From positions 21,035 through 85,034 of the forward strand of contig JBLINY010000003.1 in NCBI GenBank assembly GCA_047638695.1: a stretch of DNA of 64,000 nucleotides. Reading direction: 5' to 3'. The stretch's first letter is position 1, and each line of letters starts with the position of its first letter. Below the pieces are notes generated by a model. The model worked only from the letters and a program-made list of their open reading frames with translations, was not told the origin of the DNA and made no database searches. Both the position numbers and the translations under genes were made by a program. Shown here one piece after another: positions 4,163 to 33,889 of the stretch. This stretch comes from Acidimicrobiales bacterium (lineage in GTDB: Bacteria; Actinomycetota; Acidimicrobiia; Acidimicrobiales; SZUA-35).

Positions 4163-6553
4163 TCACTGGTTCACCCGCACGACGGTTGAGGTCGTTGGGC
4201 CCTTGCTCACGACGATCTGTACCGGCATGCGTTCGGCCAAGGCTTCGATATGGGTGACGATGCCGACCAGCCGGCCGCCGGATGAAAGTTCCTCGATGGC
4301 GCTGGCGACGACGTCGAGGGTTTCGCCATCGAGGGTGCCGAATCCCTCGTCGAGGAACATCGAGCCCAAGCGCGGCGCATCGACCGATGCAAGCTCGCTG
4401 ATCGAGTCGGCCAGAGCGAGGGCCAAGGCGAGGGAGGCAAGGAAGGTCTCGCCGCCTGAGAGCGTGCGAACATCACGCTGCTCGTCGGCGTTGCGATGAT
4501 CGAGAATTTTGAACACCCCGTCGTCGGAAGCCAGTGAGTATTGGCCGGCCGACAGTTCGCGAAGTCTCACTGTGGCCCGGGCCACCAAATCGTCCAGCGC
4601 CTCGCTGAGCAACCATCGCTCGAAGCCCTTCGCACCGAGATGTTGACCGAGTGCGTCGTTGACTTGCTTCGATTCGCGCAGGGCTGCGATCTCCGATCGC
4701 CAGTCTTCGAGTTCGTCGAGGCGAGCCACTGTCTGCTCGATGTCAGCGGCAACCCTGGCCTGTTCGCGAACCAACTGCTCGGGTAGTGACTCGGGGGTTG
4801 GGTCGAGACCGAGCGGCGTCGCTTCAATCGCCAGCTCCTCGAGCGACCGCGTCTTTTCGTTCTTCCCCTCGGTTCCCGCTTCGAAAACAGACGCCCGCGC
4901 CTGGCGGCGCTGTTCGCCGATGTCGTCGGCCCAGGTCTGCAGCGCCGACCAGTCGTCAGAGAGCGACTCTCCAGCAGGGGCAGGCGGCTCGAGAGTGGCC
5001 ACTCGATCGCGCTGGCTACCGAAGGCGAAACGCTGCTGACGCTCCCCTTCCTCGGCCTTGTTCACCCCAGCTTCGGCGGCCCGAACGACAGCCTCCAGCT
5101 TGCGAGCCGCCTCCGTGAGTTCAACCACACGATCGGCAGCGTCGATGGCCCGGCTAAGTGCTTCTTTCAGGTCGGCGGGTACGTCGGCCAGCGCGACCTC
5201 GGCCTGGGCATGAGTCTTTCGTTTCTCGTCCAATCGAACTTCGGTACGGGAAAGGGTTGTACCGGCCACGTTTGCCATCGATCGCAGCTGCTTGTTCGCC
5301 TGTTCAGCCTCGGCCCAGGTGGCCTCGGCCGCTGCGAGTTCAGCTGACGGGTCATGATCGGGCACAGCGCCGACCTCTTGGCGACACACGGGACAGGCCT
5401 CGCCGACAACAAGTGTCGAGATCCAGTCGGCGGCCCGGCTACCGAGACGGGCCGTATCACGCGCCGCGACCGCAACCTGAAGCGATTCGTCGGCGTCGGC
5501 AACAGCAGCCTCGGCCGAAGCCAAAGCGGCGCGGGCCACGGCCGACTCGGCAACCAGGGCCGTCATCTCGTAGCCCAATTCGGCGAGCTGCTTCGACGCG
5601 ACGATCTGGGCCTGAAGTCGGGCGACGTCACCCGCTGACTCAGCCGAGACTCGGGCCTCATCGAGCGCCGAGCGGGCGTCGTCTAGTCCGGTGCGCCCTT
5701 GTTCGAGGCCTTCTCGGAGCCGTTCCAACTCAGAGCTGTCGGTCGCTATATGGGCCGGCAGCTCGACGGATGCCAGCTTCTCGAGATCGGCATCGACCGT
5801 TGACAGCTCGGTACGTAGCTCGACCAGCCGTTGTTCGATCTGGTCGATCGACTTCAGTCGCGGGACGGCAAAGCGACCCAGCTCGGAAAGTGCGTCGGCC
5901 CGCTTCTGGTGATCGGCCAGCACCGTCGGGCTGATGTGGGCGTAGCGGGACAGCTGTCCTTCAAAAACAACGGCCTTCTGTTCGGCCTCGCTGGCCAGCC
6001 TGCGGGCCCGGGCACCCATCTGGCTGTAGATCTCGATATCGAGCAAACGTCGTAGGAGTTTCTGCCGGCTGGCCGGGTCGTCCTTCAGAAACTGAGCGAA
6101 CAAGCCCTGGGGAAGGACGACCGTACGAGTGAACTGGTTGAAATCGAGGCCGAGCAGTGCTTCGACCGCGTCGGTGAGTTCCTTGGCGCCGGATGCGAGC
6201 ACAGGTGACTCGTCGTCCGTGGCCTCAGCCAACTCGAGCCGGGCTTCCCTGGTCGTTGCCCCCGTCTTGGTGCGACGCACGATTCGCACCGCGATATACG
6301 TGCGACCGTTCAGCTCGAAGTCGAGCCGCACCCGGGCTTGGTTCGCGGCCTGGTTGATGACGGGAGCGACCAATCGCGCGTCGTCATAGCGCGAGACCGA
6401 GCCGTACAGTGCGAACGTGATGGCATCGATGATGCTCGACTTGCCCGAGCCGGTGGGACCGACGAAGGCCACGAGATCGGCATCGCCAAAGTCAATTTCG
6501 GTGGGTTCACTGAACGTCGAGAACCCCTCGAGCTCGACCCGCAGAGGTCTCAC
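4163..6553 (-). CDS. sbcC: SbcC/Rad50 SMC-type ATPase
   Basis: Walker A GPTGSGKSS, long coiled coil with a CPVC zinc hook, signature LSGGETF, Walker B FLDEGFG. Overlaps sbcD by 4 bp. Confidence 0.92.
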   Translation of the reverse strand: MRPLRVELEGFSTFSEPTEIDFGDADLVAFVGPTGSGKSSIIDAITFALYGSVSRYDDARLVAPVINQAANQARVRLDFELNGRTYIAVRIVRRTKTGATTREARLELAEATDDESPVLASGAKELTDAVEALLGLDFNQFTRTVVLPQGLFAQFLKDDPASRQKLLRRLLDIEIYSQMGARARRLASEAEQKAVVFEGQLSRYAHISPTVLADHQKRADALSELGRFAVPRLKSIDQIEQRLVELRTELSTVDADLEKLASVELPAHIATDSSELERLREGLEQGRTGLDDARSALDEARVSAESAGDVARLQAQIVASKQLAELGYEMTALVAESAVARAALASAEAAVADADESLQVAVAARDTARLGSRAADWISTLVVGEACPVCRQEVGAVPDHDPSAELAAAEATWAEAEQANKQLRSMANVAGTTLSRTEVRLDEKRKTHAQAEVALADVPADLKEALSRAIDAADRVVELTEAARKLEAVVRAAEAGVNKAEEGERQQRFAFGSQRDRVATLEPPAPAGESLSDDWSALQTWADDIGEQRRQARASVFEAGTEGKNEKTRSLEELAIEATPLGLDPTPESLPEQLVREQARVAADIEQTVARLDELEDWRSEIAALRESKQVNDALGQHLGAKGFERWLLSEALDDLVARATVRLRELSAGQYSLASDDGVFKILDHRNADEQRDVRTLSGGETFLASLALALALADSISELASVDAPRLGSMFLDEGFGTLDGETLDVVASAIEELSSGGRLVGIVTHIEALAERMPVQIVVSKGPTTSTVVRVNQ

Positions 6554-7710
6554 GTCTCGACCTCCTGGAGATGCGAAGCATCCTCGAGCAAGGTGGCAAA
6601 CCCCTGCGACAGGCGAGCATCGACAACTTCACTGTCGGCCAAGTAGTCGTTGAATAGCTCGACGGGTGACCGACCATCACGCCGCTTCGCCTGGCGGCCC
6701 ACGGTTGGACGGTCGAAGTCGACGGTGACGTCGACGACACCGTCGCCGAGCATTTCGCGCACGTCGTCGGCCAGACCGGGCCGAGACGGCTCGTTCACCC
6801 GCACCCGCAACCAGTCGTCGCCAACGGTGGCCGCTAGCGGACGCAGCTGCTCGAGACTGCCGGCAATCGTGCGCAATCCTCGGCCAGCGGTGAGCGGTAC
6901 CGCCCGTACTTTGGCTGGCAACCCGACCTCAACATCAACGATGTTCACCTGCTTGGTCTGTTGTTCTTCTCCGAAATCGAGCTGCAGGGGTGAGCCGCTG
7001 TAGTGCATCGCCGTTGCCCCTTTTACCGCCTGGGGTCGGTGCAGATGGCCCAAGGCGACATAGCTGGCCGTGGCCGGAAAGGCGATAGCGGGCAGCGAGT
7101 ACTCATCGACCAGGTGGGCGGCTCGTTCGCCGCCACCTACAGCTCCGCCTTGGACGAATGCGTGCGCCACCACGAGATTGATCGCATCTCCGCTGAAACC
7201 CGACGTAAGGGCGGCAACGACCTGTCGGAGCCGGTCGCTGTATGTCTGGGCCAGCTCGTAGGCGGCATCGTTCATCAGCTGCTCGGCTCGCACGATTCCT
7301 CGCTGTGAAACGAACGGCAAGAGGGCAATACGGACGGGCGTGCCGTCGGTTAGGGCGAATTCGATAACACCGCCATCAGCCGGGCCGACCGGCGTGGTGA
7401 GCATGGTGACCCGACCCAGCCGCAGCAGCGGGGCCACGGCTTCGAGCCGGCGCGGATTGTCGTGATTACCCGCGACCGCCACAACCGGGGCGATACCGGC
7501 CAAACCCAGGAACGCGTCGTACACGATTCCCTCAGCTTCAGGAGAGGGAGCTGCAGTCTCGAACAGGTCGCCGGCGACGATGATCAGGTCGACCGCCTCG
7601 GATTCGGCGATCGAGACGATCTCGGCCAACACCGCTCGGTGTTCATCGGCGCGGCTATGCCCTCGGATGGCCTTACCGACGTGCCAATCGGAAGTGTGCA
7701 GCAGCCTCAC
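6550..7710 (-). CDS. sbcD: SbcD/Mre11 nuclease
   Basis: Calcineurin-like phosphoesterase motifs DWHVG, GDLFE, GNHD and GHLH. Confidence 0.92.
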   Translation of the reverse strand: MRLLHTSDWHVGKAIRGHSRADEHRAVLAEIVSIAESEAVDLIIVAGDLFETAAPSPEAEGIVYDAFLGLAGIAPVVAVAGNHDNPRRLEAVAPLLRLGRVTMLTTPVGPADGGVIEFALTDGTPVRIALLPFVSQRGIVRAEQLMNDAAYELAQTYSDRLRQVVAALTSGFSGDAINLVVAHAFVQGGAVGGGERAAHLVDEYSLPAIAFPATASYVALGHLHRPQAVKGATAMHYSGSPLQLDFGEEQQTKQVNIVDVEVGLPAKVRAVPLTAGRGLRTIAGSLEQLRPLAATVGDDWLRVRVNEPSRPGLADDVREMLGDGVVDVTVDFDRPTVGRQAKRRDGRSPVELFNDYLADSEVVDARLSQGFATLLEDASHLQEVET

Positions 7711-7769
7711 AACACCCAGACCCTATGCGAGCGCTGTGACAGTCCGACCGATTGTGGCGAGCCCGCCGA

Positions 7770-8186
7770 TTAGTCGAAGGTGACTTTGAGTTGGGGCTGT
7801 CCAATACGGTCGAGGACCGAGTTCAGCACCCGGGCGTCGTCGTCGAATCCGAGGACGTCGGAAATGTCGCCGTCAGCATCGTCCATGAGCAAGAAGTACT
7901 CGACCGCGCCGCGGACAAGCGTCCGCTCGTCGTCACCGAAAACAACTTCAAGGCTCAGCAACGAATGCAGGGCAGTGGCAATCTCCTCGGCCGTCTCGAG
8001 GTCGGTGCGATGATCGGCCATCTGCTTCACCTGATCGAGATGCATGGCGACGACATCGTCGAGTTCGAGCAGCTCCTCTGACGACGTCGCCAGGCACAGC
8101 CGACGGAACCGTGATTGCTCGTCGGGCTGCAGCAAGGCATCGAGATCGATCGCGGGAACGTCGAGCGGCTCTGGTTGGTCGGACAC
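7770..8186 (-). CDS. small acidic hypothetical protein embedded in the herA-mre11 operon
   Basis: 138 aa, strongly Asp/Glu/Leu rich, no TM segment or signal peptide. Lies 18 bp after the herA stop and 59 bp before the sbcD start. I recognised no family. Confidence 0.55.
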   Translation of the reverse strand: MSDQPEPLDVPAIDLDALLQPDEQSRFRRLCLATSSEELLELDDVVAMHLDQVKQMADHRTDLETAEEIATALHSLLSLEVVFGDDERTLVRGAVEYFLLMDDADGDISDVLGFDDDARVLNSVLDRIGQPQLKVTFD

Positions 8187-8204
8187 GGCGCCAGTATCGC
8201 TTGA

Positions 8205-9911
8205 TCAGGCCAGTCCGGCAAAGGGGTCATCGGCGACACCTGCGGCCGCTGATGGGCTGGCCGCTTCGGCCGAACGAGTCGCCCATGAGGGAAAGGGAAA
8301 CTCGACCAGGAGCGGGACCGGCAGCAGCGGTTGGGCCACATACATCGAACCGGGTTTCAGGATGGTCGAGCGCGCCCGCTGCACCGGCGGCAGAAAGCCG
8401 TATTCGTCGCGACGAGACTCGGCCGGGTCGAGGCGGCCGACAATTCGAATGGCCGAGTTGGAAACGATCCGTCGCTCGACCTCGCTGGCCGTCTGCTGAG
8501 CACCAATGAGAATGATGCCCAACGACCGCCCTCGCTCGGCGACATCCAGCAGGATCTCCTTGATCGGACTGGATGAATCTCGGGGCGCATACTTATTCAG
8601 TTCATCGAGCACGACCAGCTGAAGCGGCTTGGCAATGCCGCTGGCTTCCTTCGCATCGAAGGCTTGCCGCAACACGACCCCGACCACGAAGCGCTTGGCT
8701 CGGTCGTGGAGCGAGTGAATGTCGATGACGGTGACCTGATGGCCATCGAGATCGACGGCGTGCTGATCGGCGTTGCCGATGTCAGCCCTGATCAGTTGCT
8801 CGACGTGTCGTCGGGCCGAGGCCAACCGCCGAACAAAGGCGTTGATGGTGCCGCCGCCAACGGCGCGGCCCGTCCACCGCTGGTCGGCGGGTTCATCGGC
8901 GTCTTCGGGAATGAGCTTGTCCTCGATGGCGTCGAGCAAATCGCTGAAGGTCCGTATGGTGCGCCCTTCGAAACTCACCGCGCCATCGCCGGCGGCCGGG
9001 AGCTGGGCCAGCTGTGCGGTGACCGACTGGACGACGATGGTGTATTGCTGCCGCTCGTCTTCGGAGTCGGCGAACAAGAACGGCAGCAGCTGTTGATGGC
9101 AGAACTGCTGGATGGTCCAAAAGAAGGGACTTACGCCGAGTGACCGCGAGCCGGTGGCCGGCGTGGCGTTGGCGTCGCCTTTCCGAGGCGGTGCCAGGAT
9201 GCCGACGTCTCGGAAGGGCGCCGGTTCCAGGCCCAGTGGCTTGTACCGGTCGGCGGCCTGCTGGTCGAGCTGGCTGTTGGCGTGATCGAGAAAGAGTAGA
9301 TCTTCGCCTTTTACGTTGAAGATAAGGGCCTTGGTGTTTGCCGCCTCGGCGCCCAGTACGCCGGAGTTGAACATGGAATACAGCAGAAACGTGGCGTAGC
9401 TGGTCTTGGTGGCCACACCGGAGATTCCAGAGATGTTGATGTGGGCACCCTTGGTGCCATCGATGAAGTCGAGGTCGAGAAACACCGGCTCATCGTTGCG
9501 AGAGAGTCCGGCCGGTAGTCGTCGTTCGACCCCGTCGAACGACAGCGCAACGTCACGTTCAAGATCTGTTGCCAACCGGACGGCCGCACCCGGCAGCGGC
9601 GGAAGCAGGATCTCGGGCTCGAATCGGGTGGGCTGCACCAGAGCCGCCTCACTGACCTCGGCCGGCAGGATGCCGTCGGCGATCAAGAACACATCGCTCT
9701 GGAAGCGCGCCCCCTCATGCCGGGCCCGGACTTGGCTGACCAGGCCGAACATTTGGACGAGCTGTCCATCGGGCAGGATCCGGTCGACGGCGACGACATC
9801 GTCTAGTTGCAACGTGTGCGCTGGGTCGACGGCCACCCAGAACTCCAGCGGTGTCGCATCTTCGATCCCGATGACCCGCCCAACCGTTGGCTTCGCCCCA
9901 GTCAGCTCCAT
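8205..9911 (-). CDS. herA: HerA-like (DUF87/FtsK-HerA superfamily) ATPase/helicase
   Basis: 568 aa with an N-terminal HAS-barrel-like segment (GRVIGIED..FWVAV..VVAV), P-loop GISGVATKTS and Walker B LVVLDELNKY. First gene of the operon. Confidence 0.75.
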   Translation of the reverse strand: MELTGAKPTVGRVIGIEDATPLEFWVAVDPAHTLQLDDVVAVDRILPDGQLVQMFGLVSQVRARHEGARFQSDVFLIADGILPAEVSEAALVQPTRFEPEILLPPLPGAAVRLATDLERDVALSFDGVERRLPAGLSRNDEPVFLDLDFIDGTKGAHINISGISGVATKTSYATFLLYSMFNSGVLGAEAANTKALIFNVKGEDLLFLDHANSQLDQQAADRYKPLGLEPAPFRDVGILAPPRKGDANATPATGSRSLGVSPFFWTIQQFCHQQLLPFLFADSEDERQQYTIVVQSVTAQLAQLPAAGDGAVSFEGRTIRTFSDLLDAIEDKLIPEDADEPADQRWTGRAVGGGTINAFVRRLASARRHVEQLIRADIGNADQHAVDLDGHQVTVIDIHSLHDRAKRFVVGVVLRQAFDAKEASGIAKPLQLVVLDELNKYAPRDSSSPIKEILLDVAERGRSLGIILIGAQQTASEVERRIVSNSAIRIVGRLDPAESRRDEYGFLPPVQRARSTILKPGSMYVAQPLLPVPLLVEFPFPSWATRSAEAASPSAAAGVADDPFAGLA

Positions 9912-9952
9912 TCCAGGACGCTACTGCCCCCCAATGACAGTCCCGCCGAGAC

Positions 9953-10135
9953 AGGAGCCAGCAAGAGAACCGTTAGCCAGATCGCCGCAGGCGTGAGGCG
10001 ACAGCCGAACCAAGCAGCACACCCCGCGTGAGGCTGGCGACGGAGGAGCCAGCAAGAGAACCGTTAGCCAGATCGCCGCAGGCGTGAGGCGACAGCCGAA
10101 CCAAGCAAAAGAGTAAACACCCCCGGCGCTTTCGG
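9953..10135. repeat. tandem duplication, 91-bp period (two identical 64-bp cores at 9953-10016 and 10044-10107)
   Basis: The core aggagccagcaagagaaccgttagccagatcgccgcaggcgtgaggcgacagccgaaccaagca occurs twice, letter for letter. The flanks (gcacaccccgcg vs aaacacccccggcg) are still alignable. Located 42 bp upstream of the herA start. Confidence 0.9.
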
Positions 10136-10164
10136 GCTTTCGCCTTCATGCTACGGGGGTGTTT
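10104..10164 (-). terminator. intrinsic terminator (minus strand)
   Basis: Minus strand reads AAACACCCCCG...(inner GGCGAAAGCCCGAAAGCGCC)...CGGGGGUGUUU followed by ACUCUUUUGC. The outer stem is 11 bp. A U-rich tract is present only in the minus orientation. Confidence 0.7.
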
Positions 10165-10654
10165 GAGTCGGTTCGAGCATCCACCCACGTCGATCTCCAC
10201 GGCAGTACCGTTTCATTCAACGAGTTTCCACTTCCCGTCAGGCCAAGGCTTGGCGGGAAGTTTCCGTTTTAGCGTCACCGCGGGTTTCCCCGGGTTTGCT
10301 GAGGGCCTCGTTCATCACAGCGGTGCTGTTCCAGCTGGTTCCGGGTTGCCCCTTCATCAGCTGATGCCGTCCCGCTGTCCTCACTCGGACCTCTTACCAG
10401 TTCGAGCGGTGGCCAAAGCCTCCGGTCTCCCCGTGGCTCGAACGCCGAAGCGCCGTTGCCGGATGGGATGTCTTTCCTGGGCAGGCCTTGTTTGTGCCGT
10501 TTTCATCTCTTCCGACCAGGTCTGTCACTCGGCCCGAAGGCTTGGTGGGCTTTCCCGGTCTTTCGAGCTGTTTCGTGCGCTCACTCCGCTTGCTTGTTGG
10601 TCATCCAAGTGCCCACGAACCTATGGGTCAAGCGGTTCGTCCGAATCCCCAGGG

Positions 10655-10727
10655 TTGTCCGCAGCATTTCTTAGTTGTCCTCAGAATTGGCGATGTTGCC
10701 CCCATGTTTGCCCCCAAGTTGTCCACA
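10655..10727 (+). promoter_or_regulatory. phased array of DnaA-box-like 9-mers
   Basis: All on the same strand: TTGTCCGCA (10655), TTGTCCTCA (10675), TTGCCCCCA (10696), TTGCCCCCA (10708), TTGTCCACA (10719). The last is a perfect match to the actinobacterial DnaA box consensus TTGTCCACA. Spacings are 20, 21, 12 and 11 bp. Confidence 0.4.
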
Positions 10728-10963
10728 AGCGCCGGCACGCGAGCAGGCGTGTCAGACCATCGGCCGCCGGGTCGCCAAATTTTGGGCCGAGCCTTGTACT
10801 ACTCCCTGGAAAGGTTCCGACAATTGGGGGCAGCGGGTTGCAGAAGCAGCTCGCCAAACCACCAAAACCGGTTCGGAGCCGGACTCGTACCCATGCTCGG
10901 TGGACGGGCTAGTCGAACTCGACCGGTCCGTCCTCCGCGTATGTCTGCTGACTACTCCGACCG

Positions 10964-12874
10964 TCAGGCGTGGCTGGCCCAGGTGGCGTACATCTCGGCA
11001 TAGTGACCACCGGCGGCCACCAGCTCATCGTGCGATCCCAGTTCGATCAATCGACCATCGTCGATGACCGCAATCCGGTCGGCTCGCATGGCTGTGGCCA
11101 GGCGATGAGCAATCACGATGGCGGTGCGGCCTTCGAGAACAACATCGAGCGCCCGCTCGATCACCGTCTCGCTTCGTAGGTCAAGATTGCTGGTTGCCTC
11201 ATCCAGCACCAACACTCGTGGTTGGGCCAGAAAGGCTCGGGCCAACGCCAGGAGTTGTCGCTCTCCTGACGATAAGGACGAGCCCCGTTCGTGGACGACG
11301 GAATCAACGCCGTTCGGAAGCCGATCGATGAGTTCGCCAAGGCCAACGGTACGGCAGGCGGCCTCGATCTCTTCGCTGCTTGCATCAGGACGACCAAAGG
11401 CGATGTTGTCGCCAATCGTTCCGTTGAAGAGGAAGGGCTCTTGCGGAACTACGCCGAGCTGCTGACGAAGCGAGAACAGGGTGAGGTTTCTGAGGTCATG
11501 GCCGTCGATACGAACCTCGCCCTGGTCGGGGTCGTAGAACCTGGTCACCAGCTTGGCGACCGTCGACTTGCCGGCACCGGTTGGGCCAACCACAGCGATC
11601 GTCTCGCCGGGCGCAATCTGCAGATCGAGGTTGTGCAGCACTGGCTGTGATGGGTCGTAGCCAAAGGTCACGCCGCGGAGTTCGATATGCCCGGCGACCG
11701 GAGGCAGCGTGGAGGCATCGGCGCGCTCGACGACGCTCGGCTCGGTTAGGAGCAGCCCGCGGAGCTTGCCGACGGCCGCTTGGCCCTGTTGGTAAGAGTT
11801 GTACAGCTGCACGAGCTGTTGGATGGGGGCAAAGAAGGCGGTGAGATATAACAGAAACGCGAAAAGCTCACCGACGGTCAGACTCCCGTTCAGGACCATC
11901 CGGCCGCCAATCAACAGCAGGACGGCTTGGCCCAGAACACCGATGGCCTCGTTGGCTGGCCCGTAGAAGGCTCCGACGCTCGAGGCGTACACGTTCGCAT
12001 CTCGGTGCTCGCCGACGACGTTGGCGTGGTTGATCACGTTGTGGTGCCGGCGGTTGCTGGAGGTGATCACCCGCATACCGGCGAGACTCTCGGAGAGGTC
12101 GGCCAGGACGTCGGCAATACGGTCGCGCACCCGGCCGTAGCCCCGTTCCGAAGCCCCTCGGAACCACACGGTCAGCGCCATCATTCCCGGCAATACGACA
12201 ACCAGCGTGATGAGCGCCAACGTAGGGCTGAGGATCAACATCACGATGGTGATGACGACAAGCGTGAGGCCCTGGACCGCGAGGTTCACCAGACCGTCCT
12301 GGAAGAGGGCAGCGAGAGCGTCGATATCGCTCGTCATCCGGGTCATCAGCCGGCCGGTCTTTTCACCGGTGAAGAAGTCGAGCGACTGTCGCTGGAAGTG
12401 GGAAAATACCCGCACCCGCAGCTCGTACATGAGCTTCTCACCGAGCCGGCCGGTGTACGCGATGCGCGCATAGGACGCTGCAGTATTCACCAGCACCGAC
12501 GCCAGGTATGCCAGGCCGACCAGCCACAACACGTTCGTATTGCGAGGAACGATGGCGCGGTCGATACCAATTTGGGTGAGCAACGGACCGGCTTGAAGGG
12601 CCAGGGTTTCGATGACCACCAACACCATCGCACCGACAAGTCCTAATCGATGGGGTTCGAGGAACACCCGCAGAGTGAAAGGTCGGCGTTCGTAATCTGA
12701 TTGCGAGAACGCAATGTCGGGGGTTGGATGGTCCGGCTCTTCGGACAGGATCTTCTCGGCCCGCTCGGCCAGCTCAGTTGGAACGCCGGCGAAAGGCAGA
12801 CCGGCTGCTGCGCTGGTAGCAGCGGCTGAAGGCCCACCTCCGAACGGCGACCCTGACGGTGCACCCCAGCTCAT
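10964..12874 (-). CDS. ABC exporter, fused permease/ATPase (MdlB/MsbA type), subunit 2
   Basis: 636 aa with a six-TM domain plus NBD: GPTGAGKST, LSSGERQ, LVLDEATS. Confidence 0.9.
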   Translation of the reverse strand: MSWGAPSGSPFGGGPSAAATSAAAGLPFAGVPTELAERAEKILSEEPDHPTPDIAFSQSDYERRPFTLRVFLEPHRLGLVGAMVLVVIETLALQAGPLLTQIGIDRAIVPRNTNVLWLVGLAYLASVLVNTAASYARIAYTGRLGEKLMYELRVRVFSHFQRQSLDFFTGEKTGRLMTRMTSDIDALAALFQDGLVNLAVQGLTLVVITIVMLILSPTLALITLVVVLPGMMALTVWFRGASERGYGRVRDRIADVLADLSESLAGMRVITSSNRRHHNVINHANVVGEHRDANVYASSVGAFYGPANEAIGVLGQAVLLLIGGRMVLNGSLTVGELFAFLLYLTAFFAPIQQLVQLYNSYQQGQAAVGKLRGLLLTEPSVVERADASTLPPVAGHIELRGVTFGYDPSQPVLHNLDLQIAPGETIAVVGPTGAGKSTVAKLVTRFYDPDQGEVRIDGHDLRNLTLFSLRQQLGVVPQEPFLFNGTIGDNIAFGRPDASSEEIEAACRTVGLGELIDRLPNGVDSVVHERGSSLSSGERQLLALARAFLAQPRVLVLDEATSNLDLRSETVIERALDVVLEGRTAIVIAHRLATAMRADRIAVIDDGRLIELGSHDELVAAGGHYAEMYATWASHA

Positions 12875-14880
12875 GACTGTTCGCTTTCGTCTCTGTCAGC
12901 TTCGTCTCTGTCAGCTTCGTCTCTGTCAGCTTCGTCCATGTGGGCCAGTACTTCGGCATAACGAGGTTCGGTGTCCATGAGCTCGCGGTGAGTTCCTGAT
13001 GCGGCAACACGTCCCGCCTCCAACAGCACGACCCGATCGGCCAACGCAATGGTCGACAAGCGGTGAGCGATGATCAGCGTTGTCCGATTCGCCAGCTCAG
13101 CGTTCAGCGCCGTGTGGATGTTCTCTTCGACTCGCACGTCGATGGCGCTGGTGGCGTCATCGAGCACCAGGATCTTGGGGTCGGCCAGCAACGTTCGGGC
13201 GATTGCCACTCGCTGCCTCTGGCCACCGGACAGGGTGTATCCCCGCTCGCCCACCACCGTGTCGTACCCCTCGGGTAGGGCATCAATGAAGTCGTGAGCC
13301 TGGGCTGCGGTGGCTGCCGCGATCACATCGTCTCTCGAGGCATCAGGCCGGGCGTAGGCGATGTTGTCGGCCAGACTGACCGAGAACAGAAAAGGCTCAT
13401 CGGTGACCATGCCGAGGTTGGCCCGCAAACTGGCCTGCGAGAGATCACGAACGTCGTTACCGTCAACCCGCACCGCACCGTTGTTGACGTCATAGAAGCG
13501 CCCGAGAAGCCGAGCAATCGTCGTCTTGCCACTGCCGGTTCGGCCGACGATGGCAAGGGTCTCGCCCGGCTCAACGACGAGCGAAAAACCGGACAACACG
13601 TCTGGGGCCCGCGTGCCGCCGGGTGCCGACTCAGCAGCGTTTTCGCCAGCAGCGGTCGCAGAAGCAGCGTCATCGGCGGCGCCGTCCTCGGCTGGCAACG
13701 GTGTGCCATAGCCGAACGTCACGTCATCGAACTCGATCCGTCCGACTGGGTCGGTCAGATCTGCGGCATCGGGGCGGTCAACAATCTCGGGCGCCTCATC
13801 GAGCACTTCAAAGATGCGATCGGCCGATGCTTTGGCCCGCTGACCCATCATCAAGAACAGACCCAGCATCCGAAATGGGGCTTGCAGCATGGTGACGTAT
13901 GCGGTGAAGGCGAACAACGTACCCTCGGTTACTTCACCCTCGATCACGAGCCAGCCGCCGTAGACCAGAACCAATAGCGTTCCGAAACGGGGCAGGTTCT
14001 CGATAAAGGGGTTGTAGCGGGCCCGCATCTCGACCGTCCGGACGGTGGCCCAGCGCAGGGATGTGGCCGACTTGGCCAGCTGGTTGATCTGCGCTCGCTC
14101 GGCCGCAAAAGATCGCACCACTCGCACGCCGTTGATGTTCTCGTCGACGGTGGTCGCCACGTCAGCCAGGCGAGACTGCACGATCCACGACAACGGGAAC
14201 AGTTCGTTCCGCAGCTTGACACCTAGCCAATAGACGCCGGGCAGCGGAACGATGGCTACCAACGTCAGCGGCACATGGATCGAAAGCATGAAGGCGAACG
14301 CGGCCACGAACATCACGCCCGTCATGGCGATGAGAGGCGCGAAGGTGAGGTAGATCTGGACCGAGCGGATATCGCTGTTGGCTCGAGAGATGACCTGACC
14401 AGACTGCGTGCGGTCGTAGTAGCTGAATGACAGTCGGGTGAGGTGTTCGTACAACCGATTACGGAGATCGCTGTCGATCTGAAACGCCGTTCGGTACAGC
14501 CCGTAGCGATAGATGAACGTGATGCCGGCCCTGGCCAGTCCGATGATCAGAACAAGGACGACAAATCGGCCGAGCGGAGCGCTGCGGTCGGTGAGTGCTT
14601 GGTCAATGCCTGCACGGATCACCGCAGGAAGAGCAACCTGCAGAAGGTTGGCAATGAGCGCCAGGAACAGCGTGCCGAAGAACATCACCCGGTGAGCCAG
14701 GACGATCGGAAGTACTCGTCGAATCCATCCCAATGAACGGTCGGGATCGACGTTGCCTCGTGGCGGGTCGTAGCGGCGCTCTACGGCAACCGGGGCGAAA
14801 CGCGGATCGGCGGTCGCGTCAAGGTGCTCTGCATCGGCTGCCACATCCACAGACCGACTGTACGGCGCTCGTGAGGGCAA
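12871..14880 (-). CDS. ABC exporter, fused permease/ATPase, subunit 1
   Basis: 669 aa with GRTGSGKTT, LSGGQRQ and LVLDDATS. ATGA overlap with the partner gene. The NBD carries an Ala/Gly/Asp-rich insert, and the C-terminus is the repeat EADRDEADRDEADRDESEQS. TTG start, so the start is uncertain. Confidence 0.88.
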   Translation of the reverse strand: MPSRAPYSRSVDVAADAEHLDATADPRFAPVAVERRYDPPRGNVDPDRSLGWIRRVLPIVLAHRVMFFGTLFLALIANLLQVALPAVIRAGIDQALTDRSAPLGRFVVLVLIIGLARAGITFIYRYGLYRTAFQIDSDLRNRLYEHLTRLSFSYYDRTQSGQVISRANSDIRSVQIYLTFAPLIAMTGVMFVAAFAFMLSIHVPLTLVAIVPLPGVYWLGVKLRNELFPLSWIVQSRLADVATTVDENINGVRVVRSFAAERAQINQLAKSATSLRWATVRTVEMRARYNPFIENLPRFGTLLVLVYGGWLVIEGEVTEGTLFAFTAYVTMLQAPFRMLGLFLMMGQRAKASADRIFEVLDEAPEIVDRPDAADLTDPVGRIEFDDVTFGYGTPLPAEDGAADDAASATAAGENAAESAPGGTRAPDVLSGFSLVVEPGETLAIVGRTGSGKTTIARLLGRFYDVNNGAVRVDGNDVRDLSQASLRANLGMVTDEPFLFSVSLADNIAYARPDASRDDVIAAATAAQAHDFIDALPEGYDTVVGERGYTLSGGQRQRVAIARTLLADPKILVLDDATSAIDVRVEENIHTALNAELANRTTLIIAHRLSTIALADRVVLLEAGRVAASGTHRELMDTEPRYAEVLAHMDEADRDEADRDEADRDESEQS
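12886..12937. repeat. 15-bp tandem repeat x3.4 at the C-terminus of an ABC gene and the gene junction
   Basis: ttcgtctctgtcagc repeated at 12886, 12901 and 12916, with a partial fourth copy. Encodes (EADRD)x3 on the minus strand. Confidence 0.95.
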
Positions 14881-14912
14881 CCCCGAACGGCCCTGACGCC
14901 TAGAGTTCCAGC

Positions 14913-15857
14913 ATGAGCATTCTGATTACAGGTGGCACGGGTTTCATCGGGGCCGAGATCGTGCGGATGTTGGTGGCGGAGGGGCGCGAAGACGTGATCG
15001 TCGCTCACCGTTCCGGCAACTTCGAGCGCATCGAGGATGTGCTCGACAAGGTGCAGACGGTGCAAGCCGACCTTGGTGATGACGATGCTGTCGCCAAGCT
15101 CGTGGCCGACACGTCACCGACGCAGCTGTTCCATTTCGGCGCCACCCTCACCGGGCCCGGCGAGGCCGACCCACAGGGCCTGTTGCGGTCGAACGTGTCG
15201 GGCGTGATCACCCTGTTCGAGGCGGCACGTAAAGCCGGAACCGAGCAGATCATCTTCGCCAGCAGCATCGGCACCTACGGGCGCGACCTCGTTCCCGACG
15301 AGCCGGTGAACGACATGAGCCAGCAGCGACCCAACACTATTTATGGCGTCACCAAGGTCTTCGCCGAGAACCTGGGGGCCTACTACCGCTCGAAGCACGG
15401 CATCGACTTCCGCGGGTTGCGCTACCCATCGATCGTCGGCCCGGGCGTGACCACCAAGAGCCTGGCCCAGTACACCAGTTGGATGATCGAGGCGGCAGCC
15501 AAAGGCGAACCATTCAGTGTGTGGACGGGGCCGGAGACCGTGATTCCGATTCTCTATTACAAGGATGCGGCGAAGGCAGCACTCGACCTGGCCGCGGCCC
15601 CTCTGGACGACATCAAGACCATCAACTATCTCGTTGACGGGGCCCGGCCGACGCCGAACGCGGGGGAAATCGCCGAAGCGGTCAAGGGCCGAGCTGGCGA
15701 TGCTGCCATTACTTTCGACCCCGACCCGGAAGCGGCACTCAGCCTGTCCCGAAATCTGGTGATCGACGACGCCGTTGCCCGCCAGGAGTGGGGCTGGAAT
15801 CCCGCCTTCGGCCTCGATGGCATGATCGACGACTTCTTTGCCGAAGTGCGAGGCTGA
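14913..15857 (+). CDS. NAD-dependent epimerase/dehydratase family protein
   Basis: N-terminal ILITGGTGFIG Rossmann motif and a YxxxK-type SDR-extended fold. 314 aa. Confidence 0.85.
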   Translation: MSILITGGTGFIGAEIVRMLVAEGREDVIVAHRSGNFERIEDVLDKVQTVQADLGDDDAVAKLVADTSPTQLFHFGATLTGPGEADPQGLLRSNVSGVITLFEAARKAGTEQIIFASSIGTYGRDLVPDEPVNDMSQQRPNTIYGVTKVFAENLGAYYRSKHGIDFRGLRYPSIVGPGVTTKSLAQYTSWMIEAAAKGEPFSVWTGPETVIPILYYKDAAKAALDLAAAPLDDIKTINYLVDGARPTPNAGEIAEAVKGRAGDAAITFDPDPEAALSLSRNLVIDDAVARQEWGWNPAFGLDGMIDDFFAEVRG

Positions 15858-15880: not shown

Positions 15881-16495
15881 ATGGATCTTGATTTCTGGGT
15901 TGACCCCATTTGACCATGGTGCTGGGTGACGGCCCGTTGGGTCGTCGACGAGGTAGCACCAGCGCGTGATCTGAACATCACGTGGCAGCCCATCAGCCTG
16001 CTGTTCAAGAACGATGTGCAGCCTGACAACGAGCGCTACGACGTGTACTTCAGCACCCACCGCATGTTGCGGGTGATGGAGGCCGTGCGAGTGGCCGAAG
16101 GTGAAGGCCCGGTCTTTGAGCTGTACTGGGAGTTCGGCCGTCGCATCCATCACGACAAAGATCGCGATTTCGACATAGCTGATGCGCTCGAAGCAGCTGG
16201 TCTCGATCGGGCCCATGCCGCGGCTGCCGACGACGAGTCGTGGGACGACATCATCCGCAAACGTCAAGCCGTCGGCATCGAGTTGGCTGGCGAAGACATT
16301 GGTACACCGATCATTGCTTTCGATGATCGCAACGGGGTCAAGCAGGGCTACTTCGGTCCGGTCATCACCCGAGTACCACCCACTGAGGACTCGCTGGCCA
16401 TGTGGGACGCGATGGTAGCCATGATGAACGTCCAGGGATTCTGGGAGCTCAAGCGCACCCGCACCGAGCGCCCCGAGTTCGGGGAACGTCCCTGA
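15881..16495 (+). CDS. DsbA-like / Rv2466c-like (mycothiol-dependent reductase family) thiol oxidoreductase with in-frame TGA (putative selenocysteine) in the active site
   Basis: The ORF track starts at GTG 15926, but the frame is open back to ATG 15881 apart from TGA at 15911-15913. Read-through gives MDLDFWVDPI-U-PWCWVTARW, so the family's CPWC redox motif appears with U at the first Cys. The C-terminus ELKRTRTERPEF is typical of the family. Confidence 0.7.
15918..15960 (+). promoter_or_regulatory. candidate bacterial SECIS hairpin
   Basis: Outer stem GGUGCU (15918-23) pairs with AGCACC (15955-60). Inner 8-bp stem GACGGCCC/GGGUCGUC (15928-46) has a GUU apical loop about 23 nt after the UGA. 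Confidence 0.5.
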
Positions 16496-17380
16496 TTGAG
16501 CTTCGAAGAACCTGAACTGATTGCCTCGACCGATGGGGTCGAGGTGGCGCTCCATCGCTTGGGGGGCAACGGCCCGCCGCTGCTGTTCATGCACGCCACC
16601 GGTTTCAACGGGCGCACCTACAGCCCATTCGTGGCGCCCCTCATCGAACACTTCACCGTATGGGCTCCCGATATCCGCGGCCACGGATGGAGTACAACGC
16701 CCGAGAACGGCAACTACGACTGGCTACGCATTGCGTCAGATGTGCTTGCCGCCATCGACCACCTCGGTATCGCCACAGGCGAGCTCGATGCGGTGGGCCA
16801 CAGCGTCGGTGCCGCCCTGCTGCTGCTGGCCGACGCCGAACGGCCGGGTTTGCTGCGACGCATGTACGGCTACGAGCCCATCGTCTGGCGTCCGGGCGAG
16901 GTGTTCGGCCCGGGCGAGAATCCGCTTGTCGCCGGCGCCTTGAAACGCCGCGAGGTCTTCACCGATCGAGGCGAGGCCATCGAACGATTCGCCGGCCGAC
17001 CACCGTTCGCCACCAGCCGAGCCGATGCGCTGCACGCCTACGTCACCCACGGCTTCGAGGATCTCGACGACGGCACCATTCGTTTGCGCTGTCGCGGCGC
17101 CGACGAATCAGCCACCTACGACGGCGAGCGAACATCAACCAGCGATCGCCTTACTGGCTGTCAGGCCCCGATCGCCATTGGCAAAGGGGCCGACAGCGGA
17201 TTCGGCAATCTCGGGCTCCCGGCCTTCGAAGCCCTGCCCAATGCCACGCTGGTGGTGCATGATGACCTCGGGCACTTTGGTCCACTCGAGGCACCAACCC
17301 GGTTAGCGGCCGACGCCCTTGCCGCCGTGCTTTCACCGAACGACGAAGCCGGAGTTACGTCGCCTCCACCGCCGGGATGA
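16496..17380 (+). CDS. alpha/beta hydrolase
   Basis: HATGFNG oxyanion region and GHSVGA nucleophile elbow. 294 aa. TTG start directly after the upstream TGA. Confidence 0.8.
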   Translation: MSFEEPELIASTDGVEVALHRLGGNGPPLLFMHATGFNGRTYSPFVAPLIEHFTVWAPDIRGHGWSTTPENGNYDWLRIASDVLAAIDHLGIATGELDAVGHSVGAALLLLADAERPGLLRRMYGYEPIVWRPGEVFGPGENPLVAGALKRREVFTDRGEAIERFAGRPPFATSRADALHAYVTHGFEDLDDGTIRLRCRGADESATYDGERTSTSDRLTGCQAPIAIGKGADSGFGNLGLPAFEALPNATLVVHDDLGHFGPLEAPTRLAADALAAVLSPNDEAGVTSPPPPG

Positions 17381-18410
17381 CCTCGTCGGTGAGCAGGGAA
17401 AGACAGCGTCGGACCTGCTCATCTGCTTGACCAGGATGCTGCATCCGCAGGATCAGATCGGTGACGCCGAGTTCGTCGCGGTATCGACGGATCTCGTCGG
17501 CGCAGAATTCGGGATCGCCGATGATGAAGCGATCTTTCCAAAAGGCTTCCGACTCATAGAACGGGTCGTCGAGATCCGTCACCAGTCGACGGCTTCCGTC
17601 TGCCATCCGTTCGATCATGGCCACCCCGGGCGGGGCGTAGACGTTCCGATACGTGTGCATGAGATGTGGCCGTACCTCGGCCCAAGCCTGCTCGGTCGTT
17701 TCAGCAACGTAGAAGTCACGAATCAGCGCGATGGGCTCGTCGTCAAGCGGGCGGCCGGCTGCCTGCAAGGACACTCGATAGTCGTCGAACTGGGCCTTGG
17801 TGTGTTCAAGATCAGTGAGCAGCGAGATCAACAGGCGATGGCCATCGTCCGCCACTCGTCGACGAGTCTTCGGGGTGGCAGCCCCAACCCATAGTGGCGG
17901 CGGTGGTTGCTGAACCAAACCTGGCTTCAGTTGGGCATCAAGAACGTTGTAGTGCTTGCCCTCAAAGCTGAACCGCTCGCCGCTGAAGGCCAGGTTCAAG
18001 ATCTCGAGCCCCTCCAGATACATGGCCCGCCGAGAAGCGAACTCGTAGCCAAACCCGTCGAACTCGTCGGCCCGGTACCCCTGACCGACGCCCAGCTCGA
18101 AGCGCCCACCGGAGATGTTGTCGACAACCGCGCAGTCTTCGGCCAGCTTCATTGGATGGCCATAAAGGGGAAGTACGACGATCCCCTGGCAGATTCGCAC
18201 CTGCTCGGTGACGGCCGCAACGGCGGCCGCCACCATCATGGGTGACGGGCAGTAACTGTCTTCGAAGAAGTGGTGCTCGGTCAGCCAGATCGAATCGATA
18301 CCGCGCCGGTCGGCCTCGGCGATCTGCCCCAAACCTTCCCTATATACCTGCGCGGTCGAGGCACCGAACTCTGTCGGTGCCTCGAAAGAATAGAGCAGGC
18401 CAAATCGCAT
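17355..18410 (-). CDS. LLM-class (luciferase-like) flavin/F420-dependent oxidoreductase
   Basis: 351 aa with MRFGLLY...WLTEHHF...GRFELGVGQG, typical of the LLM family. Confidence 0.85.
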   Translation of the reverse strand: MRFGLLYSFEAPTEFGASTAQVYREGLGQIAEADRRGIDSIWLTEHHFFEDSYCPSPMMVAAAVAAVTEQVRICQGIVVLPLYGHPMKLAEDCAVVDNISGGRFELGVGQGYRADEFDGFGYEFASRRAMYLEGLEILNLAFSGERFSFEGKHYNVLDAQLKPGLVQQPPPPLWVGAATPKTRRRVADDGHRLLISLLTDLEHTKAQFDDYRVSLQAAGRPLDDEPIALIRDFYVAETTEQAWAEVRPHLMHTYRNVYAPPGVAMIERMADGSRRLVTDLDDPFYESEAFWKDRFIIGDPEFCADEIRRYRDELGVTDLILRMQHPGQADEQVRRCLSLLTDEVIPAVEAT

Positions 18411-18419
18411 GGCCGAATA

Positions 18420-19766
18420 TCAGCTGTAGGGGTGAGGGATGCGCTCGATCTGCAGCGGGTTGTCGTAATCGACCATGCCGGTCTGCATGCCGGCAATGGG
18501 CTGCGCTTGGTAGCGAGCTACTTCGGCCCGACCAACCACCATGTGATGGACCTCGTCGGGTCCGTCGGCAAGCCGCAGCGTTCGCTGGGCATGGTAGAGA
18601 TCGGGGAGAACCGTCCATTGGCTCACTCCTGCGGCGCCGTGCATCTGGATGGAGGCGTCGATGATCTGGCAGACACGCTCGGGCACCATGGCCTTGACGG
18701 CCGACACCCACACTCGTGCTTCGCGGTTGCCGAGGACATCCATGGCCTTGGCGGCACGCAACACCATGAGGCGCATGGCCTCGATGTCAATGCGCATACG
18801 GGAGGCCAGCTCGACGTTCTTACCCAGCTGGATGAGGGGCTTGCCGAAGGCTTGCTTCGACAGACCACGCTCGCAGTAGAGCTGCAGCGCCTTATCGGCG
18901 GCGCCGATCGAGCGCATGCAATGGTGAATCCGGCCCGGTCCAAGACGAAGCTGACTGATCTCGAAGCCACGACCCTCGCCCAGGAGCATGTTCTCCTTCG
19001 GCACCCGCACATCGGTGTACTTGATGTGCATATGACCGTGAGGTGAATCGTCACTGCCGAAGACATGCATCGGACCGAGGATGTCGACGCCAGGAGCATC
19101 GATCGGCACGAGAATCTGCGACTGCTGCAGGTGAGGAGCAGCATCGGGGTTCGTGCGACACATGGTGATCATGATGAGGCAGCGAGGATCGCCCGCCCCC
19201 GAGATGTAGAACTTCTCGCCGTTGATGACGTACTCGTCGCCATCCAACTCGGCCACCGTCGCCACATTCTTGGCATCGGACGAGGCGAACTCGGGCTCGG
19301 TCATGGCGAAGGCCGAGCGAATCTTGCCTTCGAGAAGCGGCTTCAGCCACTGCTCTTTTTGCTCGGGGGTGCCGACACGCTCGAGCACCTCCATGTTGCC
19401 GGTGTCGGGAGCGGCGCAGTTGAGGCACTCCGAAGCGAGGCGATTCTTGCCCAGCTCGTTGGCGATGTAGGCGTAGTCGAGGTTGCTGAGGCCTTCGCCG
19501 GTCTCAGCGTCGGGCAGGAAGAAGTTCCATAGACCCTGTTCGCGAGCCTTTGCTTTCGCCCCCTCGAGCAACTCAAGTTGGCCTTCGCCGTAGCTCCACG
19601 GGTCGACACGACCCTCGCCGAGGCGGTGGAATTCTGCGGTGATGGGGTCGACTTCAGTCGAGATGAACTTGATGACCGACTCGAGGAGCGGACGAGCGCT
19701 GTCCGACATCGAGAGGTCGTACATCTGGCCACCGAAGTCGTCAGTGTTCAAGGGGTTGGCTGGCAT
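18420..19766 (-). CDS. acyl-CoA dehydrogenase (ACAD10/11-like FadE)
   Basis: 448 aa with FAMTEP..SDA and a YISGAGDPR-type motif, and an ACAD C-terminal helical domain. Confidence 0.85.
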   Translation of the reverse strand: MPANPLNTDDFGGQMYDLSMSDSARPLLESVIKFISTEVDPITAEFHRLGEGRVDPWSYGEGQLELLEGAKAKAREQGLWNFFLPDAETGEGLSNLDYAYIANELGKNRLASECLNCAAPDTGNMEVLERVGTPEQKEQWLKPLLEGKIRSAFAMTEPEFASSDAKNVATVAELDGDEYVINGEKFYISGAGDPRCLIMITMCRTNPDAAPHLQQSQILVPIDAPGVDILGPMHVFGSDDSPHGHMHIKYTDVRVPKENMLLGEGRGFEISQLRLGPGRIHHCMRSIGAADKALQLYCERGLSKQAFGKPLIQLGKNVELASRMRIDIEAMRLMVLRAAKAMDVLGNREARVWVSAVKAMVPERVCQIIDASIQMHGAAGVSQWTVLPDLYHAQRTLRLADGPDEVHHMVVGRAEVARYQAQPIAGMQTGMVDYDNPLQIERIPHPYS

Positions 19767-32737: not shown

Positions 32738-33889
32738 TCAGCGATGCCCCGGCGCCATGTAGAACCAGGCCGGATGAGGCCCGCCCTGTTTTTTGATGGC
32801 GGCACGCGCGGCCAACACCGTCTTTCCGGCCTCGGTCTGTTCGAAGTACCAGGCCTCGGCGGCTCGGCCGTCCGGCGGCGGGCCATCAACCAGCTCGAGG
32901 GCAGCCTCTTCGTAGTAGGTGCGGATGTCGTGACACATTGCCGTGGTGTTCTTGCCCGGGATTTCCGCCTCTTTCCAGTTGGCGCCATTGGCAATGTCCG
33001 CCAGCACCTGGAGGGCACCGGGAACCGCGTCGGCCTCCATCACCCGACCAACGGATGAGAATCCGCGTCGCTCGGCTGAACGGTCGTAGGCTTTTCGCAA
33101 CCCGTTGGCTTCATCGACGGCGGGCGGAAGGCTGGCGTCGAAGCGCGGCGGCAGCGAACAACTCAGCGGAACCTCTTCGGCCTCAATAACGGCCGGGTGG
33201 TCGACCAACACAGGACCATCAGCTTCGAGCAGAGCGAACGCCCGGCTAAGTACGTCGTGCTGGAACTCGGCGTCGCCCGGACGGCCAAGTGGGCGACCTA
33301 GTGGGAAGGCGCCGTACAGCGCACGAGGTGGTGCCATTCGTTCGGCGACCGAGCGGGTTGCAGCGAGGGTGACGGTGGCGATGCCAGCGGCCTCGAAAAC
33401 GTGGGCGAGCGTACACACGGTACGCGTGCAGAGGGGTCAAACGGGGGTGAGCAACACCACGTCGACGCCGTCGGCCTTCAACTGCGCTGCCGCTCGCGGC
33501 CCTGAGTCGAGGCGTACGGTGGCGACGTCGTCTGGCTGATTCCCGGCGAACGATGCGTGCCGCGGAGCGACCGCCCCTATCACGCCCGATGCTGCAAGCT
33601 CCTCGAGCCGGTCGATCGGGAACACAACGTTCAGGTCAATGGCAATCCCGGTGCGGTCGAAGTTCGGGCTCCAATGACCGAGCACAAGATCACGAGCATC
33701 GGATGGCAACAAGCGATATTCGGTGTCACCCGGTTGGAAGCCCTCGTCGCTTGATCGGTGCAGGGCCGCCGACGTCACGATGGCAACGGTGGCCTCACTC
33801 AGCGGCTTAGGGGTTACCCATGCCGGGTTGTCGAACACAGGGACCGAACCCTCGTCGCCAACCTTGCGCATCATCACATCACCGGACAT
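32738..33889 (-). CDS. GrdB-family (glycine/sarcosine/betaine/D-proline reductase selenoprotein B-like) protein with in-frame TGA (putative selenocysteine)
   Basis: ORFs 33437..34297 and 32738..33418 share one frame and are joined by ...VVLLTPV-TGA-PLCTRTVCTLAHVFEAAGIATVTL.... The upstream part has a GrdB-like PIDRLEELAASGVIG. The start is uncertain (ATG 33889; alternatives 33910 and 33874). Confidence 0.7.
33409..33425 (-). promoter_or_regulatory. candidate bacterial SECIS hairpin
   Basis: On the minus strand, 11 nt after the UGA: GCGUAC-CGUGU-GUACGC. This is a 6-bp stem with a 5-nt loop containing GU, and the loop starts 17 nt after the UGA. Confidence 0.5.

Follow-up and report, generated by a model that had tools for sequence, protein, structure and literature searches.

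A UGA-containing PrdB-like gene of an Acidimicrobiales bacterium probably encodes a stand-alone selenoprotein reductase distinct from D-proline reductase

Selenocysteine (Sec)-containing proteins named proline reductase PrdB recur in surveys of bacterial selenoproteomes, above all in those of marine origin. In the passages considered here, 42 genes of this family were counted in the Sargasso Sea, where it was the third most abundant one (PMC1088965), the Global Ocean Sampling data were found to hold 235 Sec and 110 cysteine (Cys) forms, assigned to pfam07355 and sharing a UxxC motif (PMC2398784, Table 2), and PrdB was stated to represent 6.4% of the marine selenoprotein genes (PMC9402790). In addition, "proline reductase" selenoproteins were reported for Anaeromyxobacter and Geobacter (PMC1794560). 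These marine survey passages treat the family as proline reductase and are silent on a missing PrdA partner, on a score below the family threshold, and on an extra C-terminal domain. Here we analyze a PrdB-like gene on a stretch of 64,000 nucleotides (the window) from an Acidimicrobiales bacterium (assembly GCA_047638695.1, contig JBLINY010000003.1, forward-strand positions 21,035 to 85,034). The family of this gene and that described in the survey passages (Zhang and Gladyshev 2005, 2008) are alike in their assignment to pfam07355, in a UxxC motif with Sec, in their marine abundance, and in the predominance of Sec over Cys forms. Sec-form members were detected in metagenome-assembled genomes (MAGs) from Tara (L043 and L062) and in single-cell genomes of marine Acidimicrobiales (L076 and L079), and one Cys homologue, P0074, occurs on 216 contigs, including Tara contigs. 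From this match of descriptors, we infer that the two families are the same.

The described systems closest to this protein are D-proline reductase and the glycine, sarcosine, and betaine reductases. It shares with PrdB (TIGR04483) of Clostridium sticklandii and Clostridioides difficile an alpha/beta domain with U/C-x-x-C at the same position, as well as the residues D78, D85, N87, P91, G105, G116, E166, G169, P188, R189, G198, G202, and Q210 (window protein numbering). However, PrdB has about 240 amino acids, whereas the window protein reaches 383 through a helical C-terminal domain, before which canonical PrdB and the other short subfamilies end. The motif is UPLCxRT instead of the CGTCHRS of PrdB, and adjacent genes for PrdA, PrdC, PrdD, or PrdE are missing here. 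As for GrdB, GrdF, and GrdH (PF07355, TIGR01917, and TIGR01918), the window protein matches their C-terminal half, approximately profile positions 205-420 of 431-435 and including the Sec region, but lacks the N-terminal 200 residues, and its motif is UxxCxxxxC, with a variable last Cys, as opposed to UxxCxxC in GrdB. Unlike in the glycine, sarcosine, and betaine reductase clusters, no grdA, grdC, grdD, or grdE gene is present within about 12 kb, nor were grd genes found at the orthologous loci. The window protein is not a canonical subunit of D-proline or glycine reductase. Very probably, this single gene encodes a 383-residue Sec protein, in which the UGA is decoded with the help of a downstream hairpin and which acts as a stand-alone reductase distinct from D-proline reductase.

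The gene is a single frame of 383 codons on the minus strand, in which the TGA at codon 151 is the sole internal stop (coordinates of all features are given in Table 1). Its translation reads MSGDVMMRK...GVDVVLLTPV-TGA-PLCTRTVCTLAHVFEAAGIATV...APGHR*, joining as ...LLTPV-U-PLCTRT.... The start codon ATG at 33889 fits the family N terminus MSxDxxxR, and the orthologous loci match residues 1-383 of the window protein in tblastn alignments. The match of the NCBIfam model TIGR04483 (D-proline reductase PrdB) runs through the TGA from residue 13 to residue 220 (E 1.8e-39, 135.6 bits, profile positions 9-217 of 238). A search covering 5.8 billion proteins returned about 58 full-length proteins of 376-439 amino acids that are 48-57% identical to the window protein at a query coverage of 92-100%. 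Since the PrdB model spans the TGA and full-length homologues cover both sides of it, the two halves form one family. The same search identified the exact C-terminal half as P0001, a 226-amino-acid "hypothetical protein" of an Acidimicrobiales MAG at NCBI, along with about 60 fragments of 226-232 amino acids that are 70-85% identical to this annotated half. In the full-length homologues, the column of the TGA is occupied by Cys in 50 of 59 cases, by Gly in 6, by Ala in 2, and by Ser in 1, whereas P152, C154, R156, and T157 are invariant in all 59, and the position of Cys244 holds a Cys in 58. In the bona fide PrdB P0208, which scores 453 bits with TIGR04483, C-G-T-C aligns with the U-P-L-C of the window protein, so that the TGA codon corresponds to its first Cys. 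The initial annotation, which had joined two adjacent same-frame open reading frames (ORFs) through the TGA into one protein with Sec in a Sec/Cys column, is thus corroborated on all of these points, and its UxxC arrangement agrees with the tables of the literature (PMC13188914 and PMC2398784).

The same annotation had assigned the protein to the GrdB family on account of a GrdB-like region in the upstream half. This region is real: residues 29-148 give a Pfam GRDB (PF07355) hit of 25.4 bits, which exceeds the gathering score of 22 and covers profile positions 222-345 of 347, and the homology to GrdB stands; PrdB, however, is the nearer relative, because the models for GrdF, GrdH, and GrdB proper give only 35-49 bits. 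Among these, TIGR01918 reaches 42.6 bits against a cutoff of 65.45 and TIGR01917 reaches 35.2 against 602, in both cases over the C-terminal half of the profile. In the region 33445-33889, the hit to Pfam GRDB breaks off two residues short of the Sec, and sequences cut off at the UGA may have been used to build this model.

With PrdB as the best family match, the gene could be taken to encode a genuine PrdB of D-proline reductase, or a GrdB-type protein B, for which the pyruvoyl subunit (PrdA or GrdE) and the electron transfer partners are encoded elsewhere in the genome. The alignment of its UxxC motif with that of a true PrdB, the invariance of 13 core residues between the family and the aligned PrdB-type sequences, and the PrdB name that the family carries in the literature (PMC1088965 and PMC2398784) are in line with this explanation. 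On the other hand, the score of the window protein is less than half of the curated equivalog cutoff of TIGR04483, which is 300 bits and is far exceeded by true PrdB, and the protein has an extra conserved domain of 135 residues. Furthermore, no PrdA, GrdE, or GrdA gene was found near the PrdB-like gene in any of 77 loci, whereas in the positive control, locus L108, the gene for PrdA (PF09338, 887-2692) is followed by a gene for a 149-amino-acid protein and then by that for true PrdB, which thus sits two genes from PrdA. The hosts of the family are also chiefly aerobic marine and soil heterotrophs and not Stickland fermenters. In the light of these data, a genuine PrdB or GrdB-type subunit appears improbable. 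The interpretation of the gene as an orphan outside a canonical reductase complex, already put forward in the initial annotation, holds in view of the scores below the cutoffs and of the missing PrdA, GrdA, and GrdE neighbors, and a stand-alone small-molecule reductase other than D-proline reductase is most likely.

Evidence for the significance of the TGA comes from its conservation. A genome scan, in which one genome was retained per species, provided 80 loci with 48-88% protein identity to the window protein over residues 1-383. The Sec codon is a stop in 78 of them; in 74 it was read as TGA, and for four loci with variant motifs the stop was revealed by tblastn alignment. The other two loci, both from Porticoccaceae, carry TGT. 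Among the lineages represented are Acidimicrobiia, Dehalococcoidia/Chloroflexota, Gammaproteobacteria, Binatia, Hydrogenedentota, Dormibacteria, Holophagae, Myxococcota, and Spirochaetaceae, and the family is very widespread over many phyla and not an oddity of Actinomycetota. The alternative that the TGA is a true stop, reflecting a pseudogene, a sequencing error, or two genes (for a 150-residue N-terminal protein and for the 226-residue protein of NCBI), can draw on the fact that gene callers annotate the downstream ORF only (P0001) and that such halves are plentiful in public databases. However, an identical stop is kept in nearly all of these genomes at this level of protein identity, which excludes a pseudogene or a sequencing error; both halves are conserved, the Cys-form homologues are single polypeptides, and synonymous sites past the TGA are held to maintain the hairpin only where the codon is TGA. 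A true stop is already contradicted by these comparative sequence data, and we attach next to no weight to it.

The second line of evidence is the hairpin downstream of the UGA, a putative selenocysteine insertion sequence (SECIS). A 6-bp hairpin with a CGUGU loop had been predicted to start 11 nt after the UGA, and it is present exactly at 33409-33425, with the 5' arm GCGUAC and the 3' arm GUACGC; in the RNAalifold structure, a 2x2 internal loop separates this core from two outer pairs, 33429/33405 and 33428/33406. All six stem pairs are intact in each of 74 distinct Sec-form sequences (444 of 444 pair cells). The pair 24/34 is C-G in 39 of these sequences and U-A in 35, and it is broken in none. 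Its 5' side is taken by the third, synonymous position of the Arg156 codon (CGU/CGC) and its 3' side by the first position of codon 160, a codon that reads either ACG (Thr) or GUG/GCG (Val/Ala). According to parsimony on a neighbor-joining tree of 78 Sec forms, about 14 switches between C-G and U-A are needed, and the two states therefore do not go back to one inherited change; a mismatched state at this pair is absent from the tree. The basal pair was also found swapped to U-A in one sequence. As a control, 26 Cys-form genes were drawn from metagenomes with a degenerate pattern. The peptide that these genes encode is identical or almost so, as in CPLCPRTVCTLAH, but no more than 1-5 of the 6 stem pairs are left in them, and Arg is specified by CGC, CGG, AGA, and CGA. 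A Gly-form gene with the codon GGG (L107, 209-1372) has 4 of the 6 pairs left. As judged from this covariation, the hairpin is a selected structure. The minimal fdhF element of Escherichia coli is said, according to work of Liu et al. from 1998, to be a 17-nt hairpin that likewise lies 11 nt after the UGA. Bacterial SECIS elements are expected to have a loop of 3-9 nt with a G in the first two loop positions, a stem of 4-16 bp, 16-37 nt between the UGA and the loop, and a minimum free energy of at most -7.5 kcal/mol (PMC13188914). The element in the window lies within all four of these ranges, with a 5-nt loop, a 6-bp stem, 17 nt from the UGA to the loop, and -9.1 kcal/mol, and its loop has G at position 2, followed by U. 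Rfam at the gathering threshold gave no match over the whole window, and a permissive Rfam scan around the UGA returned three chance-level matches, none of which was to a SECIS family.

The structure of the protein was approached through an AlphaFold2 (AF2) model of the Cys homologue P0010, which is 52% identical to the window protein and stands in for it. The model has a predicted local distance difference test score (pLDDT) of 91 and a predicted template modeling score (pTM) of 0.90. In this model, the Cys that is equivalent to Sec is placed in the loop after the strand 145-149, which holds Cys152, and the invariant second Cys is placed at the N terminus of the helix that comes next, comprising residues 155-168. 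The predicted position of Sec151 in a loop after a strand, with Cys154 at the start of a helix, is the classic arrangement of redox-active CxxC/UxxC motifs. The region around Cys244 is modeled as a linker devoid of regular secondary structure (pLDDT approximately 83-89) and leads into the C-terminal domain of about 135 residues, for which six helices are predicted with a pLDDT of 94. No relative of this domain was found by Pfam, and its best Foldseek hit in the PDB (E 3.4) is not meaningful; the same applies to the full AF2 model (best E 0.026, TM-score 0.25). A PDB sequence search with the family profile returned nothing either, so that no PrdB or GrdB relative of known structure was detectable by sequence or by fold.

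By analogy with PrdB and GrdB, a mode of action can be proposed for this predicted reductase. As in other genes for bacterial selenoproteins, SelB carrying Sec-tRNA(Sec) would be recruited by the hairpin inside the coding sequence. In the finished protein, the selenolate of Sec151 would attack an electrophilic atom of the substrate, Cys154 would resolve the adduct to a selenenyl-sulfide, and a cellular dithiol, possibly with Cys244 as relay, would reduce the latter again. The obvious candidate for binding the substrate, a role that would otherwise fall to PrdA or GrdE, is the helical domain. This domain and the absence of adjacent PrdA, GrdE, and GrdA genes are the reasons for which a stand-alone enzyme is favored.

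Cys244 might have another role, namely, that of a self-processing site, at which cleavage as in PrdA and GrdE would leave a pyruvoyl group on the helical domain, so that a selenoprotein and a carbonyl cofactor would arise from one chain. Such processing would account for the missing partner, and it is compatible with the near invariance of Cys244, its location in an unstructured linker, and the motif PL[STAV]CxLPP, which loosely resembles the sequence HALT-C-IGP in PrdA of the control locus. The Cys of this sequence in PrdA is presumably the proprotein cleavage site at which the pyruvoyl group forms, cleavage there having reportedly been described by Kabisch in 1999 and by Bednarski in 2001. 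However, no similarity between the helical domain and PrdA was detected by hhalign (probability 0.3%), the residue preceding Cys244 is variable, and a third redox Cys is the simpler explanation, so that self-processing at this residue seems quite unlikely. More speculatively, the "proline reductase" of the surveys may as a whole be a self-sufficient selenoenzyme with another reaction, in which the helical domain replaces PrdA or GrdE and, in the boldest version, self-cleavage at Cys244 provides the pyruvoyl group in cis; we put this forward as a tentative possibility, with rather more against it than for it.

Several observations weigh against a Sec-dependent stand-alone reductase. When considered alone, the hairpin is short and, at -9.1 kcal/mol, no more stable than expected by chance (z = -0.66 versus shuffled sequences); its significance derives from the comparative data only, since a single sequence proves nothing. 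Gly, Ala, or Ser takes the Sec column in 9 of the 59 full-length homologues, and the Sec position is, as far as the alignment tells, dispensable in parts of the family. No Sec machinery was detected within the window, as ARAGORN found no tRNA there, Rfam gave no match, and selA and selB were not present; Sec decoding in this particular genome is deduced indirectly. The chemistry, the reductant, and the substrate proposed above are extrapolated from PrdB and GrdB, and an experimental study of any member of the subfamily was not found in the literature searched. Lastly, the signal from the gene neighborhoods described below is weak, because these genomes are rich in the gene families concerned, and no ligase gene adjoins the window gene itself.

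As for the substitutions in the Sec column, Gly occurs in P0006, P0008, P0012, P0018, P0024, and P0114, Ala in P0040 and P0054, and Ser in P0005. All of these homologues retain Cys154, and all except P0114 retain Cys244. Either some function of these proteins does not require the first redox residue or they are inactive paralogues.

The use of Sec by this bacterium is supported indirectly by three sets of data. First, the window contains a second UGA/Cys candidate, a DsbA-family protein similar to Rv2466c (PF22234, E 5.5e-40), in which Sec would replace the first Cys of the CPWC motif (U-P-W-C) and in which the UGA is followed by a 9-bp GC-rich hairpin with a GUU loop; the 50-nt fold has -23.4 kcal/mol and a z of -2.47. 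This gene is probably the first of the two Sec candidates of the initial annotation. Secondly, when SelA and SelB served as tblastn queries against the window and the whole set of loci, matches were obtained in L046 only, a gammaproteobacterial MAG in which tRNA-Sec, selB, and selA are encoded at 16239-19584 on the minus strand, about 5 kb downstream of the Sec-form orthologue. Thirdly, selA, selC, and selD were reported in all 84 complete genomes of Actinomarina, which belongs to the marine Acidimicrobiia (bioRxiv 10.64898/2026.04.03.716425). Two other pairs of same-frame ORFs in the window were considered and rejected as Sec candidates. The pair 18420-19766/17355-18410 on the minus strand corresponds to an acyl-CoA dehydrogenase and a luciferase-like monooxygenase, and the pair 15914-16495/16496-17380 on the plus strand corresponds to the DsbA-like gene and an alpha/beta hydrolase; in both pairs the TGA is an ordinary stop and is followed by a new gene.

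Table 1. Coordinates of the PrdB-like gene, its elements, and the second Sec candidate in the window.
Feature	Position	Strand	Details or basis
PrdB-like selenoprotein coding sequence (predicted)	32738..33889	-	383 codons including Sec151; stop TGA 32740-32738
In-frame UGA, assigned to Sec151, first residue of the U-P-L-C motif	33437..33439	-	Comparative data
Cys154, invariant UxxC partner of Sec151, predicted at an alpha-helix N terminus	33428..33430	-	Homologue alignment and AF2 model
SECIS hairpin	33405..33429	-	Core 6-bp stem 33425-33420/33414-33409; loop CGUGU 33419-33415
PrdB/GrdB-homologous alpha/beta domain, residues 13-220	33230..33853	-	TIGR04483, PF07355
Cys244 in linker motif P-L-x-C-x-L-P-P, between the PrdB-like and helical domains	33158..33160	-	Homologue alignment
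C-terminal all-helical domain, residues 250-383, family specific	32741..33142	-	AF2; no counterpart in canonical PrdB
Rv2466c-like Sec candidate	15881-16495	+	TGA 15911-15913; MDLDFWVDPI-UGA-PWCW; hairpin ~15927-15947

The surroundings of the gene were compared between the window and the other loci. No Grd, Prd, or thioredoxin genes were found within about 12 kb of the PrdB-like gene in the window, and the divergent gene for a short-chain dehydrogenase/reductase (SDR) and the convergent gene for a major facilitator superfamily (MFS) transporter are its neighbors; on both counts the description in the initial annotation was accurate. Further genes nearby encode an HTH_67 regulator, a metallo-beta-lactamase (MBL)-fold protein, an HD-domain protein, amidases, an amine oxidase, CoA-transferases, an enoyl-CoA hydratase, an M20 peptidase, and a TauD-family protein. 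A scan for promoters and terminators around the PrdB-like gene found nothing. An all-against-all comparison of the ORFs around 77 loci did not identify any universal neighbor or conserved operon partner. Even the closest orthologues, L001 and L002, are without the divergent SDR gene, and the MFS gene is shared with L002 only. Some associations are recurrent but not universal. In 8 loci from several lineages, among them L007, L011, L012, L020, L059, L061, and L071, no more than 210 bp separate the orthologue from a gene for an AMP-dependent acyl-CoA ligase, and genes for CoA-transferase III, acyl-CoA dehydrogenase, or TetR adjoin orthologues in several loci. An example is the operon-like cluster of the Porticoccaceae locus L059, where 6089-15061 encodes, on the same strand, an SDR, a PPDK_N/PEP-utiliser protein, the PrdB-like protein in its Cys form, the ligase, a CoA-transferase III, and another SDR. 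These neighborhoods give a weak hint at the catabolism of a CoA-activated organic acid. The substrate might be such an acid or an onium-type osmolyte.

When 1.84 billion cluster representatives were searched with a profile, 3412 relatives were retrieved at E <=0.001, 257 of them at E <=1e-30. Many of these relatives are fragments that end at profile position 152 or begin at about position 160, which is the signature of systematic misannotation at the Sec codon. The window gene and hundreds of its orthologues are stored publicly as two fragments or as a 226-residue "hypothetical protein." The SECIS described here is tightly defined by its 11-nt spacer, 6-bp stem, and NGUNN loop and could serve in the reannotation of these genes. 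One PrdB-like relative, P0227 (375 amino acids), has in its residues 255-314 a weak match (E 9e-4, below the cutoff) to PF24696, the "UGSC family," which is another abundant marine family of UxxC selenoproteins, and a distant relationship of the two families is possible.

The selenoprotein nature of the family is already known, and what remains of interest is the function of an abundant family, together with an unusually clean SECIS covariation. Its failure in the tests for proline reductase is not addressed in the survey passages considered. According to these passages, it ranks with the most abundant selenoproteins in the surface ocean, and its "proline reductase" label is based on homology below the cutoff, in the absence of the obligatory partner. 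An abundant marine family has thus probably been misnamed. The real substrate bears on the question of why aerobic marine heterotrophs invest in selenium. If it is true that the family is no proline reductase, a new reaction would be associated with a selenoprotein that is among the commonest in aerobic bacteria of the ocean.

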